A stretch of DNA of 64,000 nucleotides from an uncultured Patescibacteria group bacterium. GTDB lineage: Bacteria > Patescibacteriota > Microgenomatia > UBA1400 > PJMF01. This document shows, piece by piece, positions 30,045 through 64,000 of this stretch. Within the stretch, counting starts at the first letter, position 1. Every line of letters starts with the position of its first letter. Both the position numbers and the translations under genes were made by a program. Where the stretch lies: positions 309,892-373,891 of the forward strand of contig CAJQIG010000001.1 in NCBI GenBank assembly GCA_905478415.1, in the 5' to 3' direction. The notes beneath the pieces are model-generated. The model was not told the origin of the DNA, did not search any database, and was given only the letters and a program-made list of their open reading frames with translations.

Positions 30045-30446
30045 ATGAAAGAAAAACACCGCTCCTCTCCAGAAATTAGAATTCTTCTCGCCGAAGATAA
30101 TCATAATTGGCAACAGTTAGTTGATAGAATTGTCACTGAACTGGGAGGAACCCTGGTCCTTACCGTTGATACACTAGAAGAAGCCTTAGCAGCAATAGTT
30201 CTCATGGAAAAACTCCAAATTGACCTAGCCATCTTGGGTGGAAACCTTGGAGCCTTCGAGGAAGGTAACCCAGATGCAGTTGCTATGCTTGAAGCTATGG
30301 CCGTTCATGCTCCAACTGTTAAAACCGTTGGCCTTTCTGGAGACACTATTCCAGGTGCTGATGTTGATCTTGGTAAACAGAATGTTGATCAGTTAGAGAC
30401 AACAATTTTTGAACTGTTTACTGAGCCTGAAACTACCCAAGAATAG
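30045..30446 (+). CDS. stand-alone receiver (CheY-like) domain protein
   Basis: RILLAEDN start typical of REC domain; no output domain. Confidence 0.45.
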   Translation: MKEKHRSSPEIRILLAEDNHNWQQLVDRIVTELGGTLVLTVDTLEEALAAIVLMEKLQIDLAILGGNLGAFEEGNPDAVAMLEAMAVHAPTVKTVGLSGDTIPGADVDLGKQNVDQLETTIFELFTEPETTQE

Positions 30447-33326: not shown

Positions 33327-33343
33327 AGAAATACTGTAAAATT

Positions 33344-33368
33344 GAATGTGCTTGGAACTTATTTTGTA
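33344..33368. repeat. degenerate copy of array repeat (gaatgtgcttggaacttattttgta)
   Basis: Shares tgttggaact core; gene stop TAA (33359-33361) lies inside. Confidence 0.4.
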
Positions 33369-33841
33369 TAGTATTCTCTATTTCTCTTAGCCTCATTAGT
33401 ACTCCAAGCCATGGCTTTCTGTGCATCATCTTGACTTTGCAATGGAATACTTTCCACCCATTTTAAATCTTCTGGCAATAAATGATCAAAATCTTTACCT
33501 GGCAAAATGGTATAAAAATCTCCTGGTATTTCTTCTGGGGGAAAACCCGTATTAATTAAAATCTTTAACCCAGCAGCAGAATCAGTGACGCTCGTCATTG
33601 AAATATTAGTTATCGAAACTGCACTATGACCAGTAATTTGCACTAGCCTTATCTGGTATTTAGAAAGATCAACTTTTTCAATAAGCATTTTTGCTATTTT
33701 AACTGCTTTTCTATGGCAAATATCATTATGTAAATTTTCATTTCCCAGTGCTTCTAGAATTACTGCTTTCAACTCTGTTTCTAGTTGCACTAATTCCTGC
33801 TTTGAAAAAGGGGTTTTGTCAAAACCTGATATTTCTGTCAT
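33359..33841 (-). CDS. hypothetical cargo protein 6 of repeat-delimited array
   Basis: ORF; stop overlaps degenerate repeat copy. Confidence 0.5.
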   Translation of the reverse strand: MTEISGFDKTPFSKQELVQLETELKAVILEALGNENLHNDICHRKAVKIAKMLIEKVDLSKYQIRLVQITGHSAVSITNISMTSVTDSAAGLKILINTGFPPEEIPGDFYTILPGKDFDHLLPEDLKWVESIPLQSQDDAQKAMAWSTNEAKRNREYYTK

Positions 33842-33897
33842 AAAACAAATTCTACTATTTTTATAAAAAAATATCGAACACAGATGTACAGTATCGA

Positions 33898-33927
33898 GAA
33901 TTTAGGGTGTTATTGGAACTACTCTAA
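33898..33927. repeat. array repeat copy A (gaatttagggtgttattggaactactctaa)
   Basis: About 80% identical to copies B and C over the ggaactactctaa core. Confidence 0.65.
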
Positions 33928-34379
33928 ACTGATAATGACGATTTAGTGGTATGTTTATTCCTTCTAAATCCGGTTTCTTGATCTATAATTACTGATTCTC
34001 CGTCAAGATGAATAAGTTCTATTTTATTTTTTTTAGTTGTAAGGAAATGTAAAAAATAGTGATTCGACATTTCAATAAATAATTCTAAAGAATCTTTAAA
34101 TAGTTTGGTCGACTCAACACTCATTCCAATTAACTGGTTAAAAAACAAGATAATATCTTCTGAATCATAACTGTCATCAATTTTAGTTCTTCCCGAATCT
34201 AGAACTTCCCAATTCTTACCAATATATAAAATAAGATTACCAGTTTTTTGATTCTGTTTTGAACCAAAATAAAGTGCTAACTCATTGAAAAAGACCTCAA
34301 CATGTAATAGTTCTAAATTCTCTAAATTATAAAATTCTTCTTCGATATCTAAAAATGATTCTTGTGTCATGTTATTCAA
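33924..34379 (-). CDS. hypothetical cargo protein 5 (151 aa)
   Basis: ORF; stop TAG supplied by repeat copy A. Confidence 0.5.
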   Translation of the reverse strand: MNNMTQESFLDIEEEFYNLENLELLHVEVFFNELALYFGSKQNQKTGNLILYIGKNWEVLDSGRTKIDDSYDSEDIILFFNQLIGMSVESTKLFKDSLELFIEMSNHYFLHFLTTKKNKIELIHLDGESVIIDQETGFRRNKHTTKSSLSV

Positions 34380-34430
34380 CTATACATTAAAAAATAGATA
34401 CTCATAAATACTTTATTCAAGATTTTTTTC

Positions 34431-34449
34431 ATATTAATTACTCTAAAAA
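34431..34449. repeat. degenerate array repeat copy E (ttaattactctaaaaag)
   Basis: Matches tactctaa...aaaag of copy B. Confidence 0.35.
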
Positions 34450-35456
34450 GTATTTTCGTACCACTTAAGTGCTCTAATGAGACCTTGATTACAATATTCC
34501 TGTCTGACAACCTCTTCGACATCTTTTTCAGATTTCATCCACCCTTTTAGGGGATCTATCATAGATTTTAAAATATCTTTAGCTTCCTCAATAGAAAATT
34601 TATTTTTTTCACACTCATTTTTAGAAAGACTTATCAGTTCTTCTAGCGGAACTGTCTCAAGTCTAATTCTGTCTGTAGAAGATCTTCTTATACCCCAAGG
34701 AGAAAAGAGTAAAATGCTTTTATTCGATAGTTCGGTACTCAGCACCTCATATAAAACTTTTGCCTGAATAAACGATACAGGACTTTTTCTTTCCCTCGCT
34801 TGTTTTATGGCATGAGTTGTAAAATTTCTGTGCTCTGTACGAAAGTAATCAAGGTCAAAGATCGCAACTTTATAAGGACCATGTTCTTCACCGTTAGTAA
34901 TCTCTTCTAACCAAGAAGTGCCCTTTGTTACCAAATTATAGTTTTGATATGTTTTATTTTCATCTAAAATAAGTTGATAAAAAAACGTGTCTTCAGAAGT
35001 CAGATCTTCTTGTGCTTCTAAAATTGAACCATCATCAAAATATATTTTTAGTACTTTTGATTCTTCACTTACTTCTAAGTTCTTGATTATAAGGGTAGTA
35101 TCTACCAATGTTACTAGTTCATCAGCTACCGCAAGCATATGATACTGTTCATCAATAAACTCATTCTTGAAAACGGAAATTTCTCTACCTTTAGCGTTTT
35201 TCCAACTCCATGTATCTGTTCCAATTGATAAGTGATAGTTAGCTTCATGTTTTTTTGAATATATTGAGATAAATAGTTGCTTTGTGTCTGAAGAACTATT
35301 TTGAATAGTTACTATTCTCAAGCCACTCAAATGATTATTTAACCTGGTTTGTGCCTCTTTGTAAGACAGTTTGTTTGTTTGGTAAAAATTACTCATGTAT
35401 TTATTATACAGTAAGTGTGTGAGGAAGAAGATTTGCAGATTTTCTGTCTTACTCAC
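34443..35456 (-). CDS. hypothetical cargo protein 4 (337 aa)
   Basis: ORF; stop TAG inside degenerate repeat attactctaa. Confidence 0.5.
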   Translation of the reverse strand: MSKTENLQIFFLTHLLYNKYMSNFYQTNKLSYKEAQTRLNNHLSGLRIVTIQNSSSDTKQLFISIYSKKHEANYHLSIGTDTWSWKNAKGREISVFKNEFIDEQYHMLAVADELVTLVDTTLIIKNLEVSEESKVLKIYFDDGSILEAQEDLTSEDTFFYQLILDENKTYQNYNLVTKGTSWLEEITNGEEHGPYKVAIFDLDYFRTEHRNFTTHAIKQARERKSPVSFIQAKVLYEVLSTELSNKSILLFSPWGIRRSSTDRIRLETVPLEELISLSKNECEKNKFSIEEAKDILKSMIDPLKGWMKSEKDVEEVVRQEYCNQGLIRALKWYENTF

Positions 35457-35496
35457 ATAGAATTAAATTTTGTTTAACTTTTTGTAAGAAGCAGAC

Positions 35497-35817
35497 TTAG
35501 GATCGAAAGTGGCCTTGACCACGATAGATCTCAATATCTACTCGTACATATCCCAGATTTGTTGCAAATTCCTTACGATAAAATGCTCGGTTCTGCCCGG
35601 CACTTGCGCCACCTACAGCCCCATCAATGGCTCGTTTTGCGGCATCGATTGCATTACGAAAATCTTGACGATTTCGCAATGAACTATAATAACGGCACGA
35701 TTCCTCGTAAACCTCTTCCAACAATTGCTTGCCTTCTGAGCGTGAACAAGAACCACCGTTATAACTTCGGCTGGCAATATTCTCGCTGCGTACTTGAACT
35801 TGGAATGCTACACTCAT
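35497..35817 (-). CDS. hypothetical cargo protein 3 (106 aa; Gly/Ala/Arg-rich, two CxxC-like pairs)
   Basis: ORF; the antisense track ORF 35559..35819 is judged spurious. Confidence 0.45.
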   Translation of the reverse strand: MSVAFQVQVRSENIASRSYNGGSCSRSEGKQLLEEVYEESCRYYSSLRNRQDFRNAIDAAKRAIDGAVGGASAGQNRAFYRKEFATNLGYVRVDIEIYRGQGHFRS

Positions 35818-36000
35818 GATTTTTACCCCTTGTTTTGAGTGAGGGACAAAATCAACTGCAAATCTTCTTCACTTAAAGAACAGCTATTATCGAGAACTTC
35901 ATACGCAGATGAAGTCCACTAAAAATAACTACGAGGATTATAACATGATTAATATATAACTTAGTATCAAAAGATATCAAAAACTATTGTTTAAAAAACC

Positions 36001-36040
36001 TCGATGTCGGGGGTTTAGAACGATGTTGGAACTACTCTAA
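36001..36040. repeat. array repeat copy B (tcgatgtcgggggtttagaacgatgttggaactactctaa)
   Basis: Read directly; contains internal direct repeat gatgtYgg and terminal inverted repeat ttaga/tctaa. Confidence 0.7.
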
Positions 36041-36355
36041 GTAAAAAGCGGGGTTAACACATCTGACGCTTGAAAAAACGGTTGACTCTACTACTCCATC
36101 AGAAGTTCCTATTAAATTTGTGCCAACAGTACCAGTACGATTAGAGAATACTCGAACATTATCTGGCAATGATGTAACCATCTCATCAAATTTAGACTTC
36201 GGAATCTCACTCAATATCCTGATTCCTATTTTGTCTGGCTTGTCAATTCTCTCATAAAGGTAATTCCCAAAAGGAGAAGCATCTATAATTACTTTTAACT
36301 CATGATATCGAGCTTCTGTTTCATGCAAGTCTATCTCTTCCATACTGCCTTTCAA
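36032..36355 (-). CDS. hypothetical cargo protein 2 (107 aa)
   Basis: ORF; RBS gaaagg; last codons YLE* encoded by repeat copy B. Confidence 0.5.
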   Translation of the reverse strand: MKGSMEEIDLHETEARYHELKVIIDASPFGNYLYERIDKPDKIGIRILSEIPKSKFDEMVTSLPDNVRVFSNRTGTVGTNLIGTSDGVVESTVFSSVRCVNPAFYLE

Positions 36356-36432
36356 TTCTAAAAAGTTATTAATCTTTGAGACAACTCAAATATAACATAT
36401 CAGCATAAAAAAATATCGCCATTTTTTTCTAT

Positions 36433-36470
36433 GCGTCGGGTGTTTGGGACGATGTTGGAACTTTAGTTAA
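36433..36470. repeat. array repeat copy C (gcgtcgggtgtttgggacgatgttggaactttagttaa)
   Basis: 27/29 match to copy B over tcggg..ggacgatgttggaact. Confidence 0.7.
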
Positions 36471-36475
36471 AGAAA

Positions 36476-36904
36476 CTATTCAGTAATAACAGGTGGCCTC
36501 GATACATAGTTTGTATGCCTCCACCAATCAGGAATAAACTTTAAAAAGAGTGTTTTGTCACTTTCATATGATTTAGATTGGGGAAACTTCTTGTAGTGTA
36601 TTGCCGTAATCTTTTCAATCTCTGAGCTGGTTTCAACTAGATAGATTGTTCCACTCAACTGCAGTGTCTGCTTGAGTTCTTCAGTTGTTCCAATAACGAG
36701 CGAAGCATGACACTGTTTAGCATCTGTAAGTTTTTCAACTTTTTTTGTACTACTTTCTGTAAAGAAATATATTTCAAGTGGATCTGGATTACAAGAATAC
36801 AACATGGCAGCTGCATGAACCTTTTCCAAAGGTAATGATGTTGCCAAAACGCTTACGCGTTGTCGTAACAAAAAACTTAATACTTCTTTCGGCAGTGTTT
36901 TCAT
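36476..36904 (-). CDS. pyridoxamine 5'-phosphate oxidase-like (FMN-binding split barrel) family protein
   Basis: N-terminal EVLSFLLRQRVSVLAT...LYSCNPD... pattern typical of the PNPOx-like family. Confidence 0.45.
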   Translation of the reverse strand: MKTLPKEVLSFLLRQRVSVLATSLPLEKVHAAAMLYSCNPDPLEIYFFTESSTKKVEKLTDAKQCHASLVIGTTEELKQTLQLSGTIYLVETSSEIEKITAIHYKKFPQSKSYESDKTLFLKFIPDWWRHTNYVSRPPVITE

Positions 36905-36907
36905 ATC

Positions 36908-37297
36908 TCAAATCACTTTCACAGCTTTTGCATTACGCATCTTTGCATCTGCATACTCAAAAAGCACACCCTGTTTTGACGTAGAATTATTTCTAACAGC
37001 ATGTGAGAGGTTTGGTGGAATTTCAAAAAGTAGAACGGTATCCCCTGACTGCATAGTAACTTCATGTGTAACATCCTCTGCATCTACCCAAAATAAAGAT
37101 AAATCATCCATTGTCACAAACCACTCAGTCCGAGGGTGCGTATGATTACCTCCATAACTGCCAGGAGCTAAAAGAATAATCTGCTGATCTTTAATAAGGT
37201 TTTTCTCAATTGGAAGATCATCTGTGTTTAATACCCAGACCTTTGGATCTTGTTTTTGGTATGAATAATTAAGTTTGGTTATCTTGGGTTCTAACAT
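36908..37297 (-). CDS. cupin domain protein; start moved to internal Met to avoid tRNA overlap
   Basis: GGNHTHPRTEWFV cupin motif 1 and GDTVLLFEIPPNLSHAV motif 2; the track ORF extends over the tRNA gene. Confidence 0.55.
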   Translation of the reverse strand: MLEPKITKLNYSYQKQDPKVWVLNTDDLPIEKNLIKDQQIILLAPGSYGGNHTHPRTEWFVTMDDLSLFWVDAEDVTHEVTMQSGDTVLLFEIPPNLSHAVRNNSTSKQGVLFEYADAKMRNAKAVKVI

Positions 37298-37347
37298 AGA
37301 GCTATCATAGCAGATCACAGGTATTTGCAGAGAATAAAATCGAGGTG

Positions 37348-37421
37348 TCGGGTTGACTGGACTCGAACCAGCGACCTCACGCACCCCATGCGCGCACTCT
37401 AGCCATCTGAGCTACAACCCG
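37348..37421 (-). tRNA. tRNA-Pro (anticodon GGG)
   Basis: Manual cloverleaf: acceptor CGGGTTG/CAACCCG, D-arm GCTC..GAGT, anticodon stem CGCGC/GCGTG, loop AUGGGGU (T33, GGG, G37), T-arm GCTGG-TTCGAGT-CCAGT, discriminator A; 74 nt, CCA not encoded. Confidence 0.8.
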
Positions 37422-37538: not shown

Positions 37539-37585
37539 AGTAGTAATATAAAAGAATAAAAAACCCAAAACAGTAAGGAGTTTCT

Positions 37586-38644
37586 ATGGCTAGAACAAAG
37601 AAGACTGACACACCAACAAAAGATGGTAAATCAGTTGAACAAAACGCTAAATTACAAGCCGTTAACATTGCAATGCAACAAATTGAAAAAGAGTTTGGCA
37701 AAGGCTCAGTCATGAAAATGGGTGACTCACTCAAAAACATGACCATCATCCCAGCCGTCTCAACTGGCTCCCTCTCGCTCAATCTGGCGTTAGGTGTTGG
37801 TGGCTTTCCAAAAGGAAGAATCGTTGAAATTTACGGACCAGAGGCATCAGGTAAAACCACTATTTGTCTGCACGCTATCGCTGCAACTCAAAAACAAGGT
37901 GGAGTAGCTGCCTTTATTGACGTTGAACATGCTCTTGATCCAACCAGAGCTGAAAAAATCGGTGTTAACCTCGATGATATGATCATTTCTCAACCAGATT
38001 ACGGTGAACAGGCCCTCGAAATTGCCGAAACGCTTATCCGATCGGGTGGTGTGGACATTGTAGTTATCGATTCAGTTGCAGCCTTAGTCCCTAAGTCAGA
38101 AATTGAAGGCGAGATGGGCGATCACCAAATGGGTACTCAAGCACGACTCATGTCTCAAGCAATGAGAAAACTGACTGCAGCTATCAGTAAAACAAAAACC
38201 CTGGTTATCTTCACCAACCAGATTCGACACAAAATTGGAGTCATGTTTGGAAGTCCAGAAACAACTACTGGTGGTAATGCCCTCAAGTTTTATGCTTCGC
38301 AAAGACTCGATATTAGAAAAATTGGCAACATCCAAGAAGGTGATCAGATTGTTGGTAGCAGACACAGAGTCAAAGTTAAGAAAAATAAATTAGCTCCACC
38401 ATTTAGAGTAGCTGAGTTTGATATGGACGAGAATGGTGTTTCTATGACTGGAGACGTGGTCGACATTGGAGTCAGTGAAGGTGTCATAGAAAAGGCAGGT
38501 AGTTTCTATAAATACGATGGTAATGTGCTGGCACAAGGACGAGAGGCCACTAAGAAACATTTTGATGCAAATCCTGATTTCATGAAGAAAATTCAAAAGG
38601 AAATCTGGGCTAAAATCAAAGAAAAGAACCAAATTTCAGATTAA
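37586..38644 (+). CDS. recA: recombinase RecA
   Basis: GPEASGKTT Walker A, full-length conservation, AGGAG RBS. Confidence 0.95.
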
Positions 38645-58711: not shown

Positions 58712-60055
58712 GTGGCCTGTGGTATGCCAAAAAACATAAAAAACATACTGGCAAAATATGACACTACGGAAACGTTGTTAATCATATCTTTATATCCCCA
58801 CAAGGGTGAGACCTACTCATCTGGGACCACTGGGGTGGCTTCTTATACCAAGAATGTAGTTAAAAATATGAACCGCAACACGGTTGTTATTGCTGACTAC
58901 AAAAAACAAAGCAGTCACTATGTCGAAAAAGACACATTAGTACTCAGACACTTCAAACATGGCAAAATGTCTATGTGGACTGAGTTACTCCAAAGTGTAA
59001 CTCAATTTAAGAATGCAAAAAATGTACTTATTCAGTTTGATTTCTCTATGTATGGAAGTATGCTGGTATCAGCAACACTACTTCCATTCTTAGCTGTTCT
59101 TAAGTCACTAGGATATAAGACTCACGTTGTTTCTCATCATGTAGTCATGGATGTTGGAAAACTTTCTGGACACATGGGACTGACGAACTCATTCCGCGAC
59201 TCAATCAAGACTCGTGCATTTAACGTAGCCTTTCACTCGTTCTATAGAGCGCTTGGCTTAGTTAGTAACTCTGTTATTGTTCTTGAAGATATCCTCAAAG
59301 AGAGACTGTCTAAATATATTCCTGCTAAAAAAATAATTGCTATTCCTCATGCTGTCGACACTAATTTAGAAAAAATTTCTAAAGCAGAGGCGCGTAAAAA
59401 ACTTGGAATTGCTGCTTCTGAAAAAGTGGTGCTCTTCTTCGGTTTTGTAAACTGGTTTAAAGGTGCAGATATCTTTGCAAAAAACTTTGCAAAGACTCAG
59501 AAGCTTCTTGGAAAAAAAGCTCGCTTTATTATTGCTGGAGGTGAAAGTATTACCTTATCTTCAAAAGAATACTATAAAGAATTTTATAATGGCGTTGTAA
59601 ATACAACCCAAAATTCTTCTTCTGTAGATATCACTGGATATGTTCCTCAAGAAAAAATTGTTGAATACTTCTCTGCTGCGGATTTAATTGTCTTTCCGTA
59701 CAGAGAGTTTATGTGTGCTTCTGGAGTACTATCATTAGCTTTCTCATATAAAAAACCATTTATTGTTTCTGACAAATTAGAACCAATGTTAACTGCACCT
59801 GATTTCTCAGAAGCTATGAAAGACTTTGGCCTAACTACTAGCGATTTATCGTTCGAACTTTCAAAAGAATCAATGCTTAAACAAACAACAAAAGTCTTAA
59901 GAAATGGTCTAAAACGTAAAATGTCACTCATGGGAGCTCAAATTAGAAAACAACGTAGTTTTCAAAATACGGCTAAGACCTATGAACGAGCTATATTTGC
60001 ACCAAGTTCAAAGCTTCATAAATCGCCTAGAGTCAGGTATGCTTATGGTGCATGA
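58712..60055 (+). CDS. glycosyltransferase family 1 (GT-B; GT4-like)
   Basis: C-terminal pattern GGE...FPYREFMCASG resembling the EX7E region. Confidence 0.55.
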   Translation: MACGMPKNIKNILAKYDTTETLLIISLYPHKGETYSSGTTGVASYTKNVVKNMNRNTVVIADYKKQSSHYVEKDTLVLRHFKHGKMSMWTELLQSVTQFKNAKNVLIQFDFSMYGSMLVSATLLPFLAVLKSLGYKTHVVSHHVVMDVGKLSGHMGLTNSFRDSIKTRAFNVAFHSFYRALGLVSNSVIVLEDILKERLSKYIPAKKIIAIPHAVDTNLEKISKAEARKKLGIAASEKVVLFFGFVNWFKGADIFAKNFAKTQKLLGKKARFIIAGGESITLSSKEYYKEFYNGVVNTTQNSSSVDITGYVPQEKIVEYFSAADLIVFPYREFMCASGVLSLAFSYKKPFIVSDKLEPMLTAPDFSEAMKDFGLTTSDLSFELSKESMLKQTTKVLRNGLKRKMSLMGAQIRKQRSFQNTAKTYERAIFAPSSKLHKSPRVRYAYGA

Positions 60056-61773
60056 AAAAAATAGCACCCTGGTTACTTTTAGCTGCTCTTAGCATCTTTC
60101 TTTGTTACTATTTTTTATTTAGAGCTCAAGTACAGCTTGGAGGTGATATCGTAGAGTATTACGGTATTACTGAATCAGTAAAAAATCACTTTAGTTTTGA
60201 ACTTACAGTAGAAGATAGAACTAATCTGGAACAAGTACTGCATAAAGCTTACTTTGAAGATCCTGGCTATTACATATCAGGCACTGATCAAAAACGCTAT
60301 CCTGTTCACTTTATCTTTTACTCACTGCTTGCACTACCATTCCGGCTACTTCTTGAGGCACTTAATCTCAATCCACTCCGATCACTTTGGTTACTAAATA
60401 TTTTTTCATACCTTACTATGATTGGGATTATCTGGGCTAAATATATTCATAAGAGTGGCCATCGTATCGCCTTTTTACTTCTTACATTTATATCTCCGCT
60501 TATGTCCTTTTTTATATGGCCTGGACCAGATCTCTTTGTCATTACGTTACTCACTGTCTCCTTGTTTGCCTTTGCTAAAAAAGAATATCTTTTTGCAATA
60601 CTTTTGAGCACAGTTGCCTCATGGCACAGTCAACCAGTACTGATTGTGACATTCTTCTTTCTCCTCTCCTATGTTGTCATTGGCCATACTCAACAAAAAA
60701 AGTTTGCAATTACTACTAAGATCTTAGCTACTGCTTTTGGTGTTGGCTTACTATCACTAATTCCCTACCTTTATAACTACCTTGCATTTGGTGTTTTAAC
60801 ACCGTGGACACTTCTTCAAGATGGATGGACTACAGTACGTGGTTTCGGATTACACAACGCTTCGGTACAAAAATTTTACGAACAATTTTTTGACCTTAAT
60901 ATTGGTATTTTTTGGTATTCTCCAATACTTTTTATAGCTTCACTGTTTTATTTTATGAGGAATCATACAAAAAACACACTGCTCAATTACTTTTATCTAG
61001 CTATTTTTTGTCTCACACTACTCTTTTATCAAACAAATCCTGGCTGGCATTATGGAACATCTGGTTTCGGTCCTGGTCGGCATTCAATTATTGTTTTAGC
61101 GTTACTTTTTTTCATTACCACTCAACTTATAGCTTCACAAACTAAAAAATTTACGATTGGATTTATTGCGTTTCTGCTAGTGATTCAAGGAAGTATTTTG
61201 TCTAAAAATAATTTTCTCGAGCCAAAACTAGAGAATACTCTCCATAATAGTTTTTTTGCTTCTTTCATTCTCGATTCTCTGCCAGAACTCTATAACCCTA
61301 CCCCTGAGATTTTTGTTGATAGAACAAACCATACAGATAATACTCAACTAGAGTCAGCCTATTATATGAAAGATGGAATCTGCAAAAAAGCCTTTGTACT
61401 GTACTCAGACCTCCCCTTCTTAAAAGAACACTGTCCTAATAATGCAAAACTCTCTGCCACACTCATGTTCGAAGACCCATTTAAAAGAAGCGCTAGCTAT
61501 CCAAGAACTATCATTTTAGACGAAGCCACTTTCTGGCCTGAACCAAGAGCTTGTGACAATAACTTTAAGCATCAATATTTTGTTTGTCCAAAAACAACAG
61601 ATGATTTTATGTCCGAGACGGGAATATCAGACGAACTTAGAATCACCACACTTGCTGAGTTTCCATCTCCTGGCATATGGAAACTCAGCAAAGGAGCCCC
61701 AATTAAAGTTACTGTTCCTCCCGGATACATTTTAGACTACACTGCAACAGATGGTATCTATGTCAACTTTTAA
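60052..61773 (+). CDS. polytopic membrane protein, GT-C-like (possible arabinofuranosyl/mannosyl-transferase)
   Basis: More than 10 TM; 4-nt overlap with preceding gene. Confidence 0.4.
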   Translation: MKKIAPWLLLAALSIFLCYYFLFRAQVQLGGDIVEYYGITESVKNHFSFELTVEDRTNLEQVLHKAYFEDPGYYISGTDQKRYPVHFIFYSLLALPFRLLLEALNLNPLRSLWLLNIFSYLTMIGIIWAKYIHKSGHRIAFLLLTFISPLMSFFIWPGPDLFVITLLTVSLFAFAKKEYLFAILLSTVASWHSQPVLIVTFFFLLSYVVIGHTQQKKFAITTKILATAFGVGLLSLIPYLYNYLAFGVLTPWTLLQDGWTTVRGFGLHNASVQKFYEQFFDLNIGIFWYSPILFIASLFYFMRNHTKNTLLNYFYLAIFCLTLLFYQTNPGWHYGTSGFGPGRHSIIVLALLFFITTQLIASQTKKFTIGFIAFLLVIQGSILSKNNFLEPKLENTLHNSFFASFILDSLPELYNPTPEIFVDRTNHTDNTQLESAYYMKDGICKKAFVLYSDLPFLKEHCPNNAKLSATLMFEDPFKRSASYPRTIILDEATFWPEPRACDNNFKHQYFVCPKTTDDFMSETGISDELRITTLAEFPSPGIWKLSKGAPIKVTVPPGYILDYTATDGIYVNF

Positions 61774-64000
61774 AAAAATTGTTACCCATATTCACTTCGC
61801 TCCAGTCTCATTACTTGTCAGTATTTTAGTAATTTTCATTATTTCTCAATTTCCAAGTACTACAAACTTGATTGGATGGGATGCAGTAAGTCCAGAACTC
61901 AACTACTCTGCAAACTTTAGTCGGGCGCTTAATTCTAGCTGGCAAGAAAACTATGGATTAGGAGCTTTAATAGGGCACGGGGTAGGAACAACCTTTATAC
62001 ATACTGGGGTAGTATACCTAATTGACCTGTTTGCACCTAGCCATGCAGTAAGAGCAATTTTTCATTTTTTATCTTTCAGTGTTGGAGCAGTAGGAATGTA
62101 TTTTCTTTCCTACCACATTCTTTCTTCTTTAAAAAATGATGTATCTAAACAACTACTTACATTTATTTCATTACTAGCAGCACTCTTTTATACATTCAAC
62201 TTAGGAACAACACAGCTTTTTTATCTACCATTAGAAGCGTTTAGTGTCCATTTTGCTGGACTTCCATGGGCACTTTTATTATTACTGAGATACATACATA
62301 GTCCAAGTAAAAAGAACTTATTCATACTATTTATTGTAAATATTTTCTTTTCGATGCAAGGCTTCATCCCATCACTTTTTGTCGCATATCTCTTTTCAAT
62401 TGGAGTGTATACCACAACTTTTTTTCTGCTCAATAAAAACAAAAAAAAGAATGGCACACATATCTTATTTGCTTTATTTATCATCTTATTAGCGAATAGC
62501 TATTGGCTAACATCATTCACTTTTTATACTTTGTTTAGAAACCAAAATTTTCTCGAAGCATATAATAACTTGAGTTCAACTGAACAATTTATACAGCAAA
62601 GCATGAAGTATGGTGATGTACTAAACGTTGGATTGTTAAAAAGTTTTTATCTTGATACTTCAGTAGCTGACACTCAAGTTTTTCAAAGCTGGAACCAATT
62701 CTTTCAAAATTCTGCTATTCTCTTTTTTTACTTCCTTTTTTTCTTAGTTAGTGTATTAGGACTCATTGTTTCTACTTTTAAACGGTATAGAAAAATAATG
62801 CTTCCACTTTCAAGTGTCTATCTTTTTTTCTTTTTAGGACTGACTACAGCAACCCCCCCTTTTTCTTTTGCTTCTAAACTTTTACAACTACTCCCCCTCT
62901 ATAAACAAGCTTTTAGAACTACATTCACTAAGCTTGGTACTGGTATGGCCCTTAGTTACAGCATATTTTTAGGTCTTGGCTTACTGTTTCTTTTTTCTAA
63001 AAAGAGCAAATTCTCTCATGCCTTTTTATGGTTTCTTTTAGCTATAAGTACCACAGTACTCGTTCTTCCTCATTTTATTTTTCCTGCCTTCTACGAGAAT
63101 GAATCAATACGTATTCCACAGGCATACAGAGATGTCACTAACGAATTTAATCAAAAGGGATATGCTCACATCGCGATGCTCCCCGCAGATTGTTCAGAAG
63201 GTTGGTATAACTACAACTGGAACTATGTTGGTTCTGGATTTCTTTGGTATGGTGTTAAACAACCAATTATTGAACGTTTTTCTGATGTGTGGAGTGCTAA
63301 CAATGAACAATACTTTTGGGAACTCTCGTCTGCACTACACGCAAATAACACAGAGCAACTTTCAAATATTTTTATGAAGTATGACATAAAATGGTTACTC
63401 ATTGATGAAAACCTTGAACACTGCAGTAATTTTAATGGTTTTTCTCAACAAAAGCTTCTCATAGATCGCTTAACAAGCTCAAATCAATTCCAACTTATTT
63501 TTGAAACAGATAAAGGAGTAGAAAAACCGATAAGAATCCTTGAAAATACTCAGCATAGTAATTATAATTTTATTTCAAGTTCATCTGTTACAAAAGTTTC
63601 TACTACTCGCACCTGGATGTTAGAGGATACTCTCTTTGCATCAAAAAAATCTTATGTTTCTAACCCAACAGAAATACTTAGCGATGAATATTTTGTCTTC
63701 CCAAGTATTTTTTCTCAAAGAGGAAATGCAGTATCTTCTTCCCAAATAGAAAATACTAACGCTACTCTCACTTTTATTTCTCCAGAAAAAACAAATACAG
63801 ATAGACAAATTAACTTAGTGGTTTCATATGCTGAGGACCCTATTCCATTCTCAACTACTATTGAACAGTTGAATGATCTTTATTCATTACAAATGAATCT
63901 CGACTTTCCGCTAGTTGTTATTGGAAGTCAAGAATTTGACGTCGATACAACAATTAATCTGGGGGAACTTTCCATTGATGAAACAACAGATATTGCACTA
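61760..64000 (+). CDS. large polytopic membrane protein, 3'-partial (no stop before window end); overlaps preceding gene by 14 nt
   Basis: Manual reading from ATG 61760 (MSTFKKIVTHIHF...) found no in-frame stop to 64000; absent from the ORF track presumably because it has no stop. Confidence 0.55.
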   Translation, partial: MSTFKKIVTHIHFAPVSLLVSILVIFIISQFPSTTNLIGWDAVSPELNYSANFSRALNSSWQENYGLGALIGHGVGTTFIHTGVVYLIDLFAPSHAVRAIFHFLSFSVGAVGMYFLSYHILSSLKNDVSKQLLTFISLLAALFYTFNLGTTQLFYLPLEAFSVHFAGLPWALLLLLRYIHSPSKKNLFILFIVNIFFSMQGFIPSLFVAYLFSIGVYTTTFFLLNKNKKKNGTHILFALFIILLANSYWLTSFTFYTLFRNQNFLEAYNNLSSTEQFIQQSMKYGDVLNVGLLKSFYLDTSVADTQVFQSWNQFFQNSAILFFYFLFFLVSVLGLIVSTFKRYRKIMLPLSSVYLFFFLGLTTATPPFSFASKLLQLLPLYKQAFRTTFTKLGTGMALSYSIFLGLGLLFLFSKKSKFSHAFLWFLLAISTTVLVLPHFIFPAFYENESIRIPQAYRDVTNEFNQKGYAHIAMLPADCSEGWYNYNWNYVGSGFLWYGVKQPIIERFSDVWSANNEQYFWELSSALHANNTEQLSNIFMKYDIKWLLIDENLEHCSNFNGFSQQKLLIDRLTSSNQFQLIFETDKGVEKPIRILENTQHSNYNFISSSSVTKVSTTRTWMLEDTLFASKKSYVSNPTEILSDEYFVFPSIFSQRGNAVSSSQIENTNATLTFISPEKTNTDRQINLVVSYAEDPIPFSTTIEQLNDLYSLQMNLDFPLVVIGSQEFDVDTTINLGELSIDETTDIAL

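Follow-up and report, generated by a model that had tools for sequence, protein, structure and literature searches.

The analysis of a 64,000-nucleotide (nt) stretch of DNA from an uncultured Patescibacteria group bacterium (contig CAJQIG010000001.1; the whole stretch is called the window here) reveals a row of small genes separated by copies of a short, conserved repeat just downstream of a tRNA-Pro(GGG) gene. This array region is enclosed between the tRNA and a conserved backbone composed of a UvrD-like helicase, a DUF2130 gene, a receiver-domain gene, and a gene for a membrane protein of 455 amino acids (aa), while recA (37586-38644, plus strand) and RNase Y (plus strand) follow beyond the tRNA. 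The GC content drops from ~0.41 to 0.30-0.36 across 32-37 kb of the window, and every gene between 33359 and 37297 lies on the minus strand, in the order cupin, PNPOx-like, 103, 106, 317, 148, and 160 aa when read from the tRNA. Together with related loci in other genomes, these arrays point to an apparently undescribed, integron-like way of collecting genes. The features of the array, from the tRNA outwards, are as follows:

37347-37421, minus strand: tRNA-Pro(GGG) (ARAGORN, Rfam), with the 3' end ...CAACCCGAC; it anchors the array and is the proposed attI-like partner site
36908-37297, minus strand: cupin gene, 129 aa, the first gene after the tRNA (Pfam Cupin_2)
36476-36904, minus strand: PNPOx-like gene, 142 aa (Pfam), which with the cupin gene forms the unit closed by site C
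36435-36470, minus strand: site C, core at 36442-36462 with 0 mismatches, ACCCGAC at 36435-36441 (pattern search)
36032-36343, minus strand: single-gene cassette of 103 aa with no family, between sites C and B
36006-36040, minus strand: site B, core at 36013-36033 with 2 mismatches, CCCCGAC at 36006-36012 (pattern search)
33924-35817, minus strand: three-gene unit between sites B and A (106 aa, 35497-35817; 317 aa, 34443-35396; 148 aa, 33924-34370)
33893-33927, minus strand: site A, degenerate, core at 33900-33920 with 6 mismatches, then TCTCGAT (76% to site B)
33359-33841, minus strand: gene of 160 aa between site A and the decayed site (gene calls)
33341-33361, minus strand: probable fourth, decayed site, AGTTCCAAGCACATTCAATTT, agreeing at 12/21 core positions (partial hidden Markov model match to the first 16 profile positions, E=0.066)

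In gene orientation, an alignment of 29 copies resolves the site into an A-rich run of ~5 nt, a 21-nt core (AGTTCCAACATCGTCCCAAAC), and 7 nt that mimic a tRNA 3' end; the ACCCGAC of site C is the exact last 7 nt of the tRNA-Pro gene. Sites A, B, and C share one orientation and all lie 3' of tRNA-Pro(GGG), with the decayed site forming the distal end of the window array and the number of mismatches growing with distance from the tRNA (0, 2, 6, 9). A left extension, TTAGAGT, is common to A and B only, an A/T hairpin at 36402-36434 comes after site C, and site A matches an independent profile only in part (E=0.15). Neither the pattern search nor nhmmer found a further clear copy in the rest of the 64-kb window, and the three to four copies fall within 3.2 kb. 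The preliminary description of this DNA had listed five copies, A to E; A, B, and C stand, whereas "E" (34437-34447) and "D" (~35497) share only a TAGAGTA-like or TAA string and do not match a 22-copy profile.

The core itself is built from a pair of direct half-repeats spaced in 11-nt phase (GTTCCAACATC and GTCCCAAACAC; GTTCCAAC and GTCCCAAAC in the 29-copy alignment) with no inverted partner, and this phasing suggests that a protein may bind in tandem on one helix face. The 7-mer that follows (CCRAC) resembles a third, partial unit of the half-repeat. RNA and DNA folds of both strands left the core unpaired in the six sites folded (A, B, C, L041-1, L049-1, and L020a; z from -1.6 to +1.4), the site matched no Rfam family, and a consensus scan for promoters and terminators returned nothing at the sites.

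Several candidate identities were tried and rejected. A partial-tRNA attachment (att) repeat, proposed from the shared GTCGGGT, fails as only 7 nt match the tRNA, and an alignment of the core to the T-arm and acceptor needs a 5-nt gap at ~65% identity, the Rfam tRNA model not detecting the core. Flank inspection and the consensus scan gave no consistent -10/-12 partner at a fixed spacing on either strand, which rejects sigma-54, extracytoplasmic-function, and sigma-70 promoters. A 3'-untranslated-region RNA element or terminator is rejected by the missing fold and by real terminators on either side, and a CRISPR repeat by spacings of 86-2100 nt that enclose genes.

The same site was found elsewhere by pattern scans, a mismatch-tolerant search, and contigs anchored on relatives of RecA. 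In total, 31 copies occur in the window and 15 other loci (numbered with an L below), where genes and sites alternate in arrays just past the 3' end of tRNA-Pro or tRNA-Gln. A Candidatus Pacebacteria genome (L019) carries two sites at the syntenic tRNA-Pro/recA locus, and the same or nearly the same tRNA-Pro heads the arrays of L019, L038, L041, and L049. Among these relatives, L038 (RecA 91% identical to that of the window) has two sites; L041 (RecA 90% identical) has five after tRNA-Pro, with cassettes of 288, 70, 257 (inverted), ~70, and 162 aa; and L049 (RecA 97% identical) has two perfect sites, with just 61 nt between the tRNA and the first of them. In L044 (RecA 87% identical), DUF2130 and a 74-aa gene are followed directly by recA, with neither tRNA-Pro nor an island (L044:9500-10000), so that the variable segment may include the tRNA as well. 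Pattern scans also placed the site in 13 metagenome contigs, five of which carry tRNA-Gln with the motif co-oriented and always 3' of it. There, L020 shows tRNA-Gln followed by four successive gene-plus-site units, and L026, L030, and L031 hold two to three sites each (L030 two).

The units enclosed by these sites are compact. The cargo consists of small enzymes (HD, HAD, NUDIX-type neighbours, methyltransferase, UDG-like, cupin, and PNPOx), and an all-against-all BLASTP found no cassette proteins shared among the collected loci. Units without any open reading frame (ORF) also occur, namely the 61 nt from the tRNA-Pro end to the first perfect site in L049 (L049:1120-1178) and a stretch in L038 (L038:8357-8421) in which site starts are 86 nt apart and ~65 nt separate the cores. 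Inverted genes sit within the arrays of L019 (302 aa and 72 aa), L041 (the methyltransferase), and L049 (174 aa). Some matches were set aside: one to a viral contig (L033, identical to L022) is a variant 21-mer within a coding region and probably due to chance, and those in L018 (Methylococcales) and L025 (a GroEL-bearing contig) look like chance as well. A phage or plasmid origin was likewise rejected, blastn having found no match to the motif in phage or plasmid collections and the viral-contig match being the one doubtful case.

Two further observations concern individual contigs. The source labels L041 (GCA_020632255.1, JACKFX010000002.1) as "Pseudomonadales bacterium"; with a RecA 90% identical to that of the window and a Pacebacteria-type gene order, the label looks wrong. 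In one strain, a transposase of the IS1595 family is inserted in the 70-aa cassette, the strains being otherwise 100% identical (L042:14-858 against L041:8625).

The placement of the copies relative to the tRNA is strict. In nine tRNA-bearing loci, 24/24 copies share the strand of the tRNA and are found on its 3' side, even beside the inverted genes of L019, L041, and L049. The 7-mer follows the identity of the tRNA: GAC at its positions 5-7 is present in 12/16 Pro-linked and 0/8 Gln-linked copies (p=0.0013), AGC in the 7-mer is present in 0/16 and 3/8 (p=0.028), exact ACCCGAC occurs in eight Pro-linked copies, and a CCAGC-like 7-mer is found beside tRNA-Gln. The conservation of the site exceeds that expected by chance or under neutrality, as copy C is identical to both sites of L049 over 30/30 nt while the DNA of recA and the tRNA is 84% identical (0.84^30 = 0.005), and the same 21-mer recurs in unrelated contigs with different flanks on both sides. 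The site is absent from the backbone intergenic regions, as judged from the 64-kb window and 10-kb backbone flanks.

The contents of the arrays, by comparison, turn over between relatives. Relatives with RecA 87-97% identical carry wholly different cassettes, or none, between conserved backbone genes, and tblastx found no counterpart of window positions 32950-37347 in L038 or L044 except the motif. One breakpoint falls at the tRNA end itself: L043 and L041 are 100% identical over 1350 nt (recA plus tRNA) and unrelated right past the tRNA 3' end, ...ACCCGACA. The tRNA-proximal site has 0-1 mismatch in 9/9 loci and the distal sites have 0-9 (Mann-Whitney p=0.0003; p=0.007 without the loci ascertained by the motif).

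A single cassette was recovered in two contexts. The 103-aa cassette of the window has a homologue in L047 that is 72% identical and has other neighbours, the two being homologous across the ORF and its flanks, from ~15 nt past the left 7-mer to the site on the right. The left 7-mer in L047 is part of a degenerate tRNA-Pro 3' end, and there the cassette is joined to a pseudo-tRNA end as if to a second entry point. A noncoding piece of ~170-195 nt, 86% identical between L041 (8280-8476) and L047 (1017-1200), stands right after a site and contains a terminator hairpin, AAAAAAGATGGCTGAATAGCCATTTTTTT, and after it a degenerate tRNA-Pro-like sequence that bears an insertion and ends in AGTCCAGTCAACCCGA. 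In L030 (5320-5567 and 4140-4209), two partial copies of the tRNA-Gln 3' end (45 nt and 17 nt) lie downstream of tRNA-Gln as classic att scars, and the most distal site is fused to ~60 nt that also follow the tRNA-Gln 3' end. Terminator hairpins follow the site in the window (site C), L021, L027, L031, L041, and L047, and a strong terminator precedes it in L030; the distance from a site to the next start codon ranges from 12 to 292 nt.

The relation between stop codons and the repeat, from which the preliminary description had started, was surveyed in 21 co-oriented cassettes from 12 loci. The readings reported for the three true copies hold. The CTA at 33924-33926 in copy A closes the 148/151-aa ORF, its TAG beginning 6 nt before the core; the CTA at 36032-36034 in copy B closes the 103/107-aa ORF ending in ...FYLE*, its TAG using A1G2 of the core; and the CTA at 36476-36478 closes the PNPOx-like ORF 6 nt outside the repeat as first delimited at copy C and 13 nt from the conserved core. 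The stops of A and B lie 5 nt apart inside the repeat and, thus, in different frames. At the decayed site, the first A of the core is also part of the stop codon of the 160-aa gene, TAA at 33359-33361. Across the survey, the stop overlaps the core in 4/21 cassettes, in two registers (TAG via A1G2 or TAA via A1), lies at most 6 nt from it in 8/21 and at most 32 nt in 16/21, and is 58-100 nt upstream in the remainder (offsets from core base 1: -1, once; -2, three times; -3; -5; -6; -6; -16 to -32, eight times; -58 to -100, five times). The nearest start codon after the core is at least 12 nt away. The proposal that ORFs systematically end within the repeat in two frames is, therefore, reduced to a tendency toward tight packing.

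The further suggestion, that of a pre-existing repeat against which genes were captured, is not supported, as the site moves with the gene upstream of it. The homologous 103-aa ORFs reach their own downstream sites in different registers (TAG on A1G2 of the core in the window, TAA on A1 in L047). The two registers are better explained by compaction: the A/T-rich junction TA|AGTTCC or T|AGTTCC supplies TAA or TAG in two frames, and tightly packed cassettes come to end at or in the site on this left edge. Such packing of a gene on the left edge of its own site agrees with a site that is part of the cassette's 3' end and is carried along with the gene, and does not agree with capture against a repeat already in place.

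We interpret the repeat as the DNA boundary, or recombination site, of small mobile gene cassettes stacked after a tRNA whose end is attI-like, a reading to which we assign a probability of roughly 0.6. A cassette, in this reading, comprises a short leader, often lacking a Shine-Dalgarno sequence, usually one ORF, and the site at its 3' end. The cassette site would be joined to the tRNA 3' end, possibly by way of circular intermediates, by a site-specific recombinase that is most plausibly of the tyrosine type and whose gene would lie elsewhere, and strand exchange within the shared 7 nt would leave the tRNA intact. Each new cassette would enter beside the tRNA and displace the older ones away from it, and the sites of the displaced cassettes would decay. 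The tRNA end would then correspond to attI and the 28-nt site to attC, the latter being linear, one-sided, and conserved in sequence instead of a folded palindrome. More tentatively, and with somewhat less than even odds, Patescibacteria (Candidate Phyla Radiation, CPR) may own an integron-analogous capture system of single-gene cassettes with a ~28-bp linear site, an unlinked putative recombinase, and the 3' ends of tRNA-Pro(GGG) and tRNA-Gln as targets, the last 7 nt being the crossover.

A number of observations weigh against this interpretation. Pfam scans found no recombinase gene in the window cassettes or in 30 ORFs of eight related loci, and no HxLRH-type motif was present among the 57 ORFs of the window. 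Conservation is confined to the left of the presumed crossover, and an inverted core-type half-site is lacking, which is atypical of a double-stranded tyrosine-recombinase site. About 40 contigs from the window's own population (European Nucleotide Archive SOLA metagenomes; longest scaffold 584 kb) all have the same gene order and give no direct sign of current activity. The cupin-PNPOx pair beside the tRNA looks like backbone; in L019, L035, and L036 a NUDIX gene comes next, with no site. This does not fit a simple history in which insertion always occurs at the tRNA end and shows that the region is shaped by other rearrangements as well. In addition, the unit between B and A holds three genes without internal sites, Gln-linked 7-mers match their own tRNA weakly (mean 4.1/7, against 3.6/7 to the Pro end), two contexts were seen for just one cassette, and several loci were found via the motif itself, which introduces ascertainment bias.

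The alternative that survives best, although we regard it as unlikely, is that the arrays are scars of serial integration by tRNA-targeting elements resembling tycheposons or prophages, with the motif being the conserved element-side part of attR, beside a short tRNA-derived core, and the cassettes being leftovers, not individually mobile, of elements that lost their integrase and replication genes by deletion. The location at tRNA 3' ends, the strain breakpoint there, and the lack of a recombinase in cis are all compatible with it, as are the true partial tRNA copies within the arrays (the two tRNA-Gln pieces of L030 and the degenerate tRNA-Pro piece of L041 and L047). Stacking of elements at one tRNA, with older ones inward and decaying, has been described for Prochlorococcus (10.1101/2020.12.28.424599). 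However, remnants of integrase or replication genes are present in none of the ~30 units, the units are mostly single genes packed to the nucleotide (stops overlapping the site and the next start as little as 12 nt past the core), which random deletion would not yield time after time, and ORF-less units of ~61-65 nt exist in L049 and L038. Moreover, one single-gene unit is conserved as a unit in two genomes, no more than 7 nt of the repeated sequence correspond to the tRNA, and the motif occurs in no phage or plasmid collection, viral contigs offering one doubtful match in a coding region.

The likeness to tycheposon islands nevertheless extends to several features. Tycheposons integrate at specific tRNA genes, and repeated integration pushes older elements inward (10.1101/2020.12.28.424599); tRNA-specific integration, decaying att copies scattered through the island, and strains that differ at the tRNA end are common to both. 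Of the features of tRNA islands in general, insertion at the 3' part of an intact tRNA was found in nine loci headed by tRNA-Pro or tRNA-Gln, and a partial-tRNA direct repeat amounts to 7 nt (ACCCGAC) in the window and to longer copies in L030, L041, and L047, while Pfam scans found an element-encoded integrase in none of the units. Tycheposons differ in carrying a ~40-nt partial-tRNA repeat, their own integrase and replication genes, and kilobases of cargo (10.1101/2020.12.28.424599), whereas the sites here combine 7 tRNA-derived nt with a non-tRNA 21-nt core and the units are 0.06-2 kb long without mobility genes.

An expression signal is a considerably weaker explanation, and we judge it improbable. 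The repeat would then be an operator or activator site (its direct halves GTTCCAACATC and GTCCCAAACAC in 11-bp phase are arranged like the targets of winged-helix regulators), a promoter of a special kind, or a signal for termination or RNA processing. The internal repeat, the intergenic position, the orientation fixed relative to most genes, and, in several cases, the placement 12-41 nt before an ATG that has no Shine-Dalgarno sequence would suit such a role, as would the stand-alone receiver-domain gene nearby in the window, L038, and L034. Against it, the site keeps the orientation of the tRNA where the adjacent gene is inverted (L019, L041, L049), a terminator hairpin stands directly after at least five copies and before one (L030), and the next start may be as far as 292 nt away. 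The motif is missing from the remaining window and the backbone flanks, consensus promoter or terminator geometry, a significant fold, and an Rfam match are all lacking, and a regulatory role gives no reason for the 7-mer to track the identity of the tRNA.

Similarly little credence is given to the idea that the motif is a portable homology anchor, through which natural transformation would exchange cassettes without a dedicated recombinase, homologous recombination acting at the conserved tRNA (with recA) on one side and at the identical 21-28-nt motif on the other. This would accord with the failure to find a recombinase, with the perfect identity of the motif across lineages, with its length, which is about that of a minimal recombination segment, and with the onset of L041/L043 divergence where tRNA homology ends. 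It leaves unexplained, however, the copy of the tRNA end in the 7 nt after the core and its change with tRNA type, the L030 junction in which a site is fused to the downstream flank of the tRNA, and the strict single orientation with intact tRNA-proximal copies, and 21 nt are marginal for RecA-dependent exchange.

A genuine integron array with attC sites, possibly a cluster of attC sites lacking integron-integrases (CALIN), is extremely improbable despite its same-orientation, mostly single-ORF units each followed by a site and ORF ends near or in it, given that the core stays unpaired in the tested folds, there is no R''/R' inverted core pair, GTTGGAA fails GTTRRRY at the terminal Y, the ~28-33-nt site is shorter than attC and conserved in sequence across lineages where attC conserves structure, no IntI is present, and the array adjoins a tRNA and recA. 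The integron cassette array is, all the same, functionally the closest match to the system proposed here, though the defining attC and IntI features fail. In both, compact units, mostly of one ORF and each ending in its own recombination-type site, are stacked in one direction from a fixed entry point; the ORFs end against or inside the site, some units lack an ORF, a gene is occasionally inverted, and cassettes are shared between arrays (here the 103-aa cassette in two contexts). The differences lie in the site, which is a short, linear, sequence-conserved element here and a structure-conserved imperfect palindrome of 57-141 nt in attC, in the missing GTTRRRY/RYYYAAC pair, and in an entry point that is a tRNA 3' end with no adjacent integrase or Pc promoter. 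Several cassettes here also carry their own promoter and terminator. A cassette-type arrangement with one site per unit is supported by the arrays, the turnover, the breakpoint at the tRNA 3' end, and the cassette found in two contexts; an integron attC is not, given the structure, the core motifs, and the lack of IntI.

Two other kinds of repeat invite comparison. The dif modules of XerC/XerD, including integrative mobile elements exploiting Xer (IMEX), likewise use ~28-bp sites to bound small gene modules with a recombinase encoded elsewhere. In dif, however, two inverted 11-bp arms flank a 6-bp spacer and the sites alternate in orientation in modules, whereas the halves here are direct, the orientation is single, and the sites are tied to a tRNA end and not to the replication terminus or plasmids; a dif/Xer site was accordingly rejected on its direct arms. 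Repetitive extragenic palindromic (REP), miniature inverted-repeat transposable element (MITE), and Correia repeats resemble the site as short intergenic repeats at gene 3' ends that sometimes give the stop codon. They are palindromic, genome-wide, and found in both orientations, in contrast to the hairpin-free, one-oriented arrays beside tRNA genes described here, of which the other 59 kb of the window hold none.

Further observations concern the setting of the array. The homologue of the cupin gene in L019 is 83% identical, and the gene adjoins the tRNA in the window, lies 3.3 kb from it in L019, and lies 5.7 kb from it, past five cassettes, in L041. The PNPOx-like gene has homologues in L019/L034, L035, and L036, which are followed by a NUDIX gene and no site, and a profile search recognized no site between the three genes of the B-A unit. 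A sigma-70-like promoter (TCGATA-17-TAGAAT, 33849-33877) ends 7 nt before the ATG of the 160-aa gene, an arrangement of the leaderless type, and cassette genes lack a Shine-Dalgarno sequence, which backbone recA has (AAGGAG in the leader at 37572-37585). At the backbone edge, the stand-alone receiver-domain gene (30045-30446) overlaps the end of the 455-aa membrane-protein gene, and this pair is kept there in the window, L038, and L034. A second low-GC stretch at 59000-64000 (0.32-0.37 versus ~0.42) contains zero copies of the motif.

Literature searches returned no equivalent system described for Patescibacteria/CPR, a group with tiny genomes in which gene acquisition is little documented. 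The perfectly conserved 21-mer provides a probe for finding further arrays, for cataloguing their cargo, and for seeking the recombinase by co-occurrence. If the interpretation is correct, integron-style stockpiling would have evolved with a different kind of site, in which a short linear sequence and a tRNA-end mimic replace the folded attC. A cassette system tied to a tRNA would then represent a compact route for gene gain and loss, renewing small arrays of accessory genes in these very reduced genomes.

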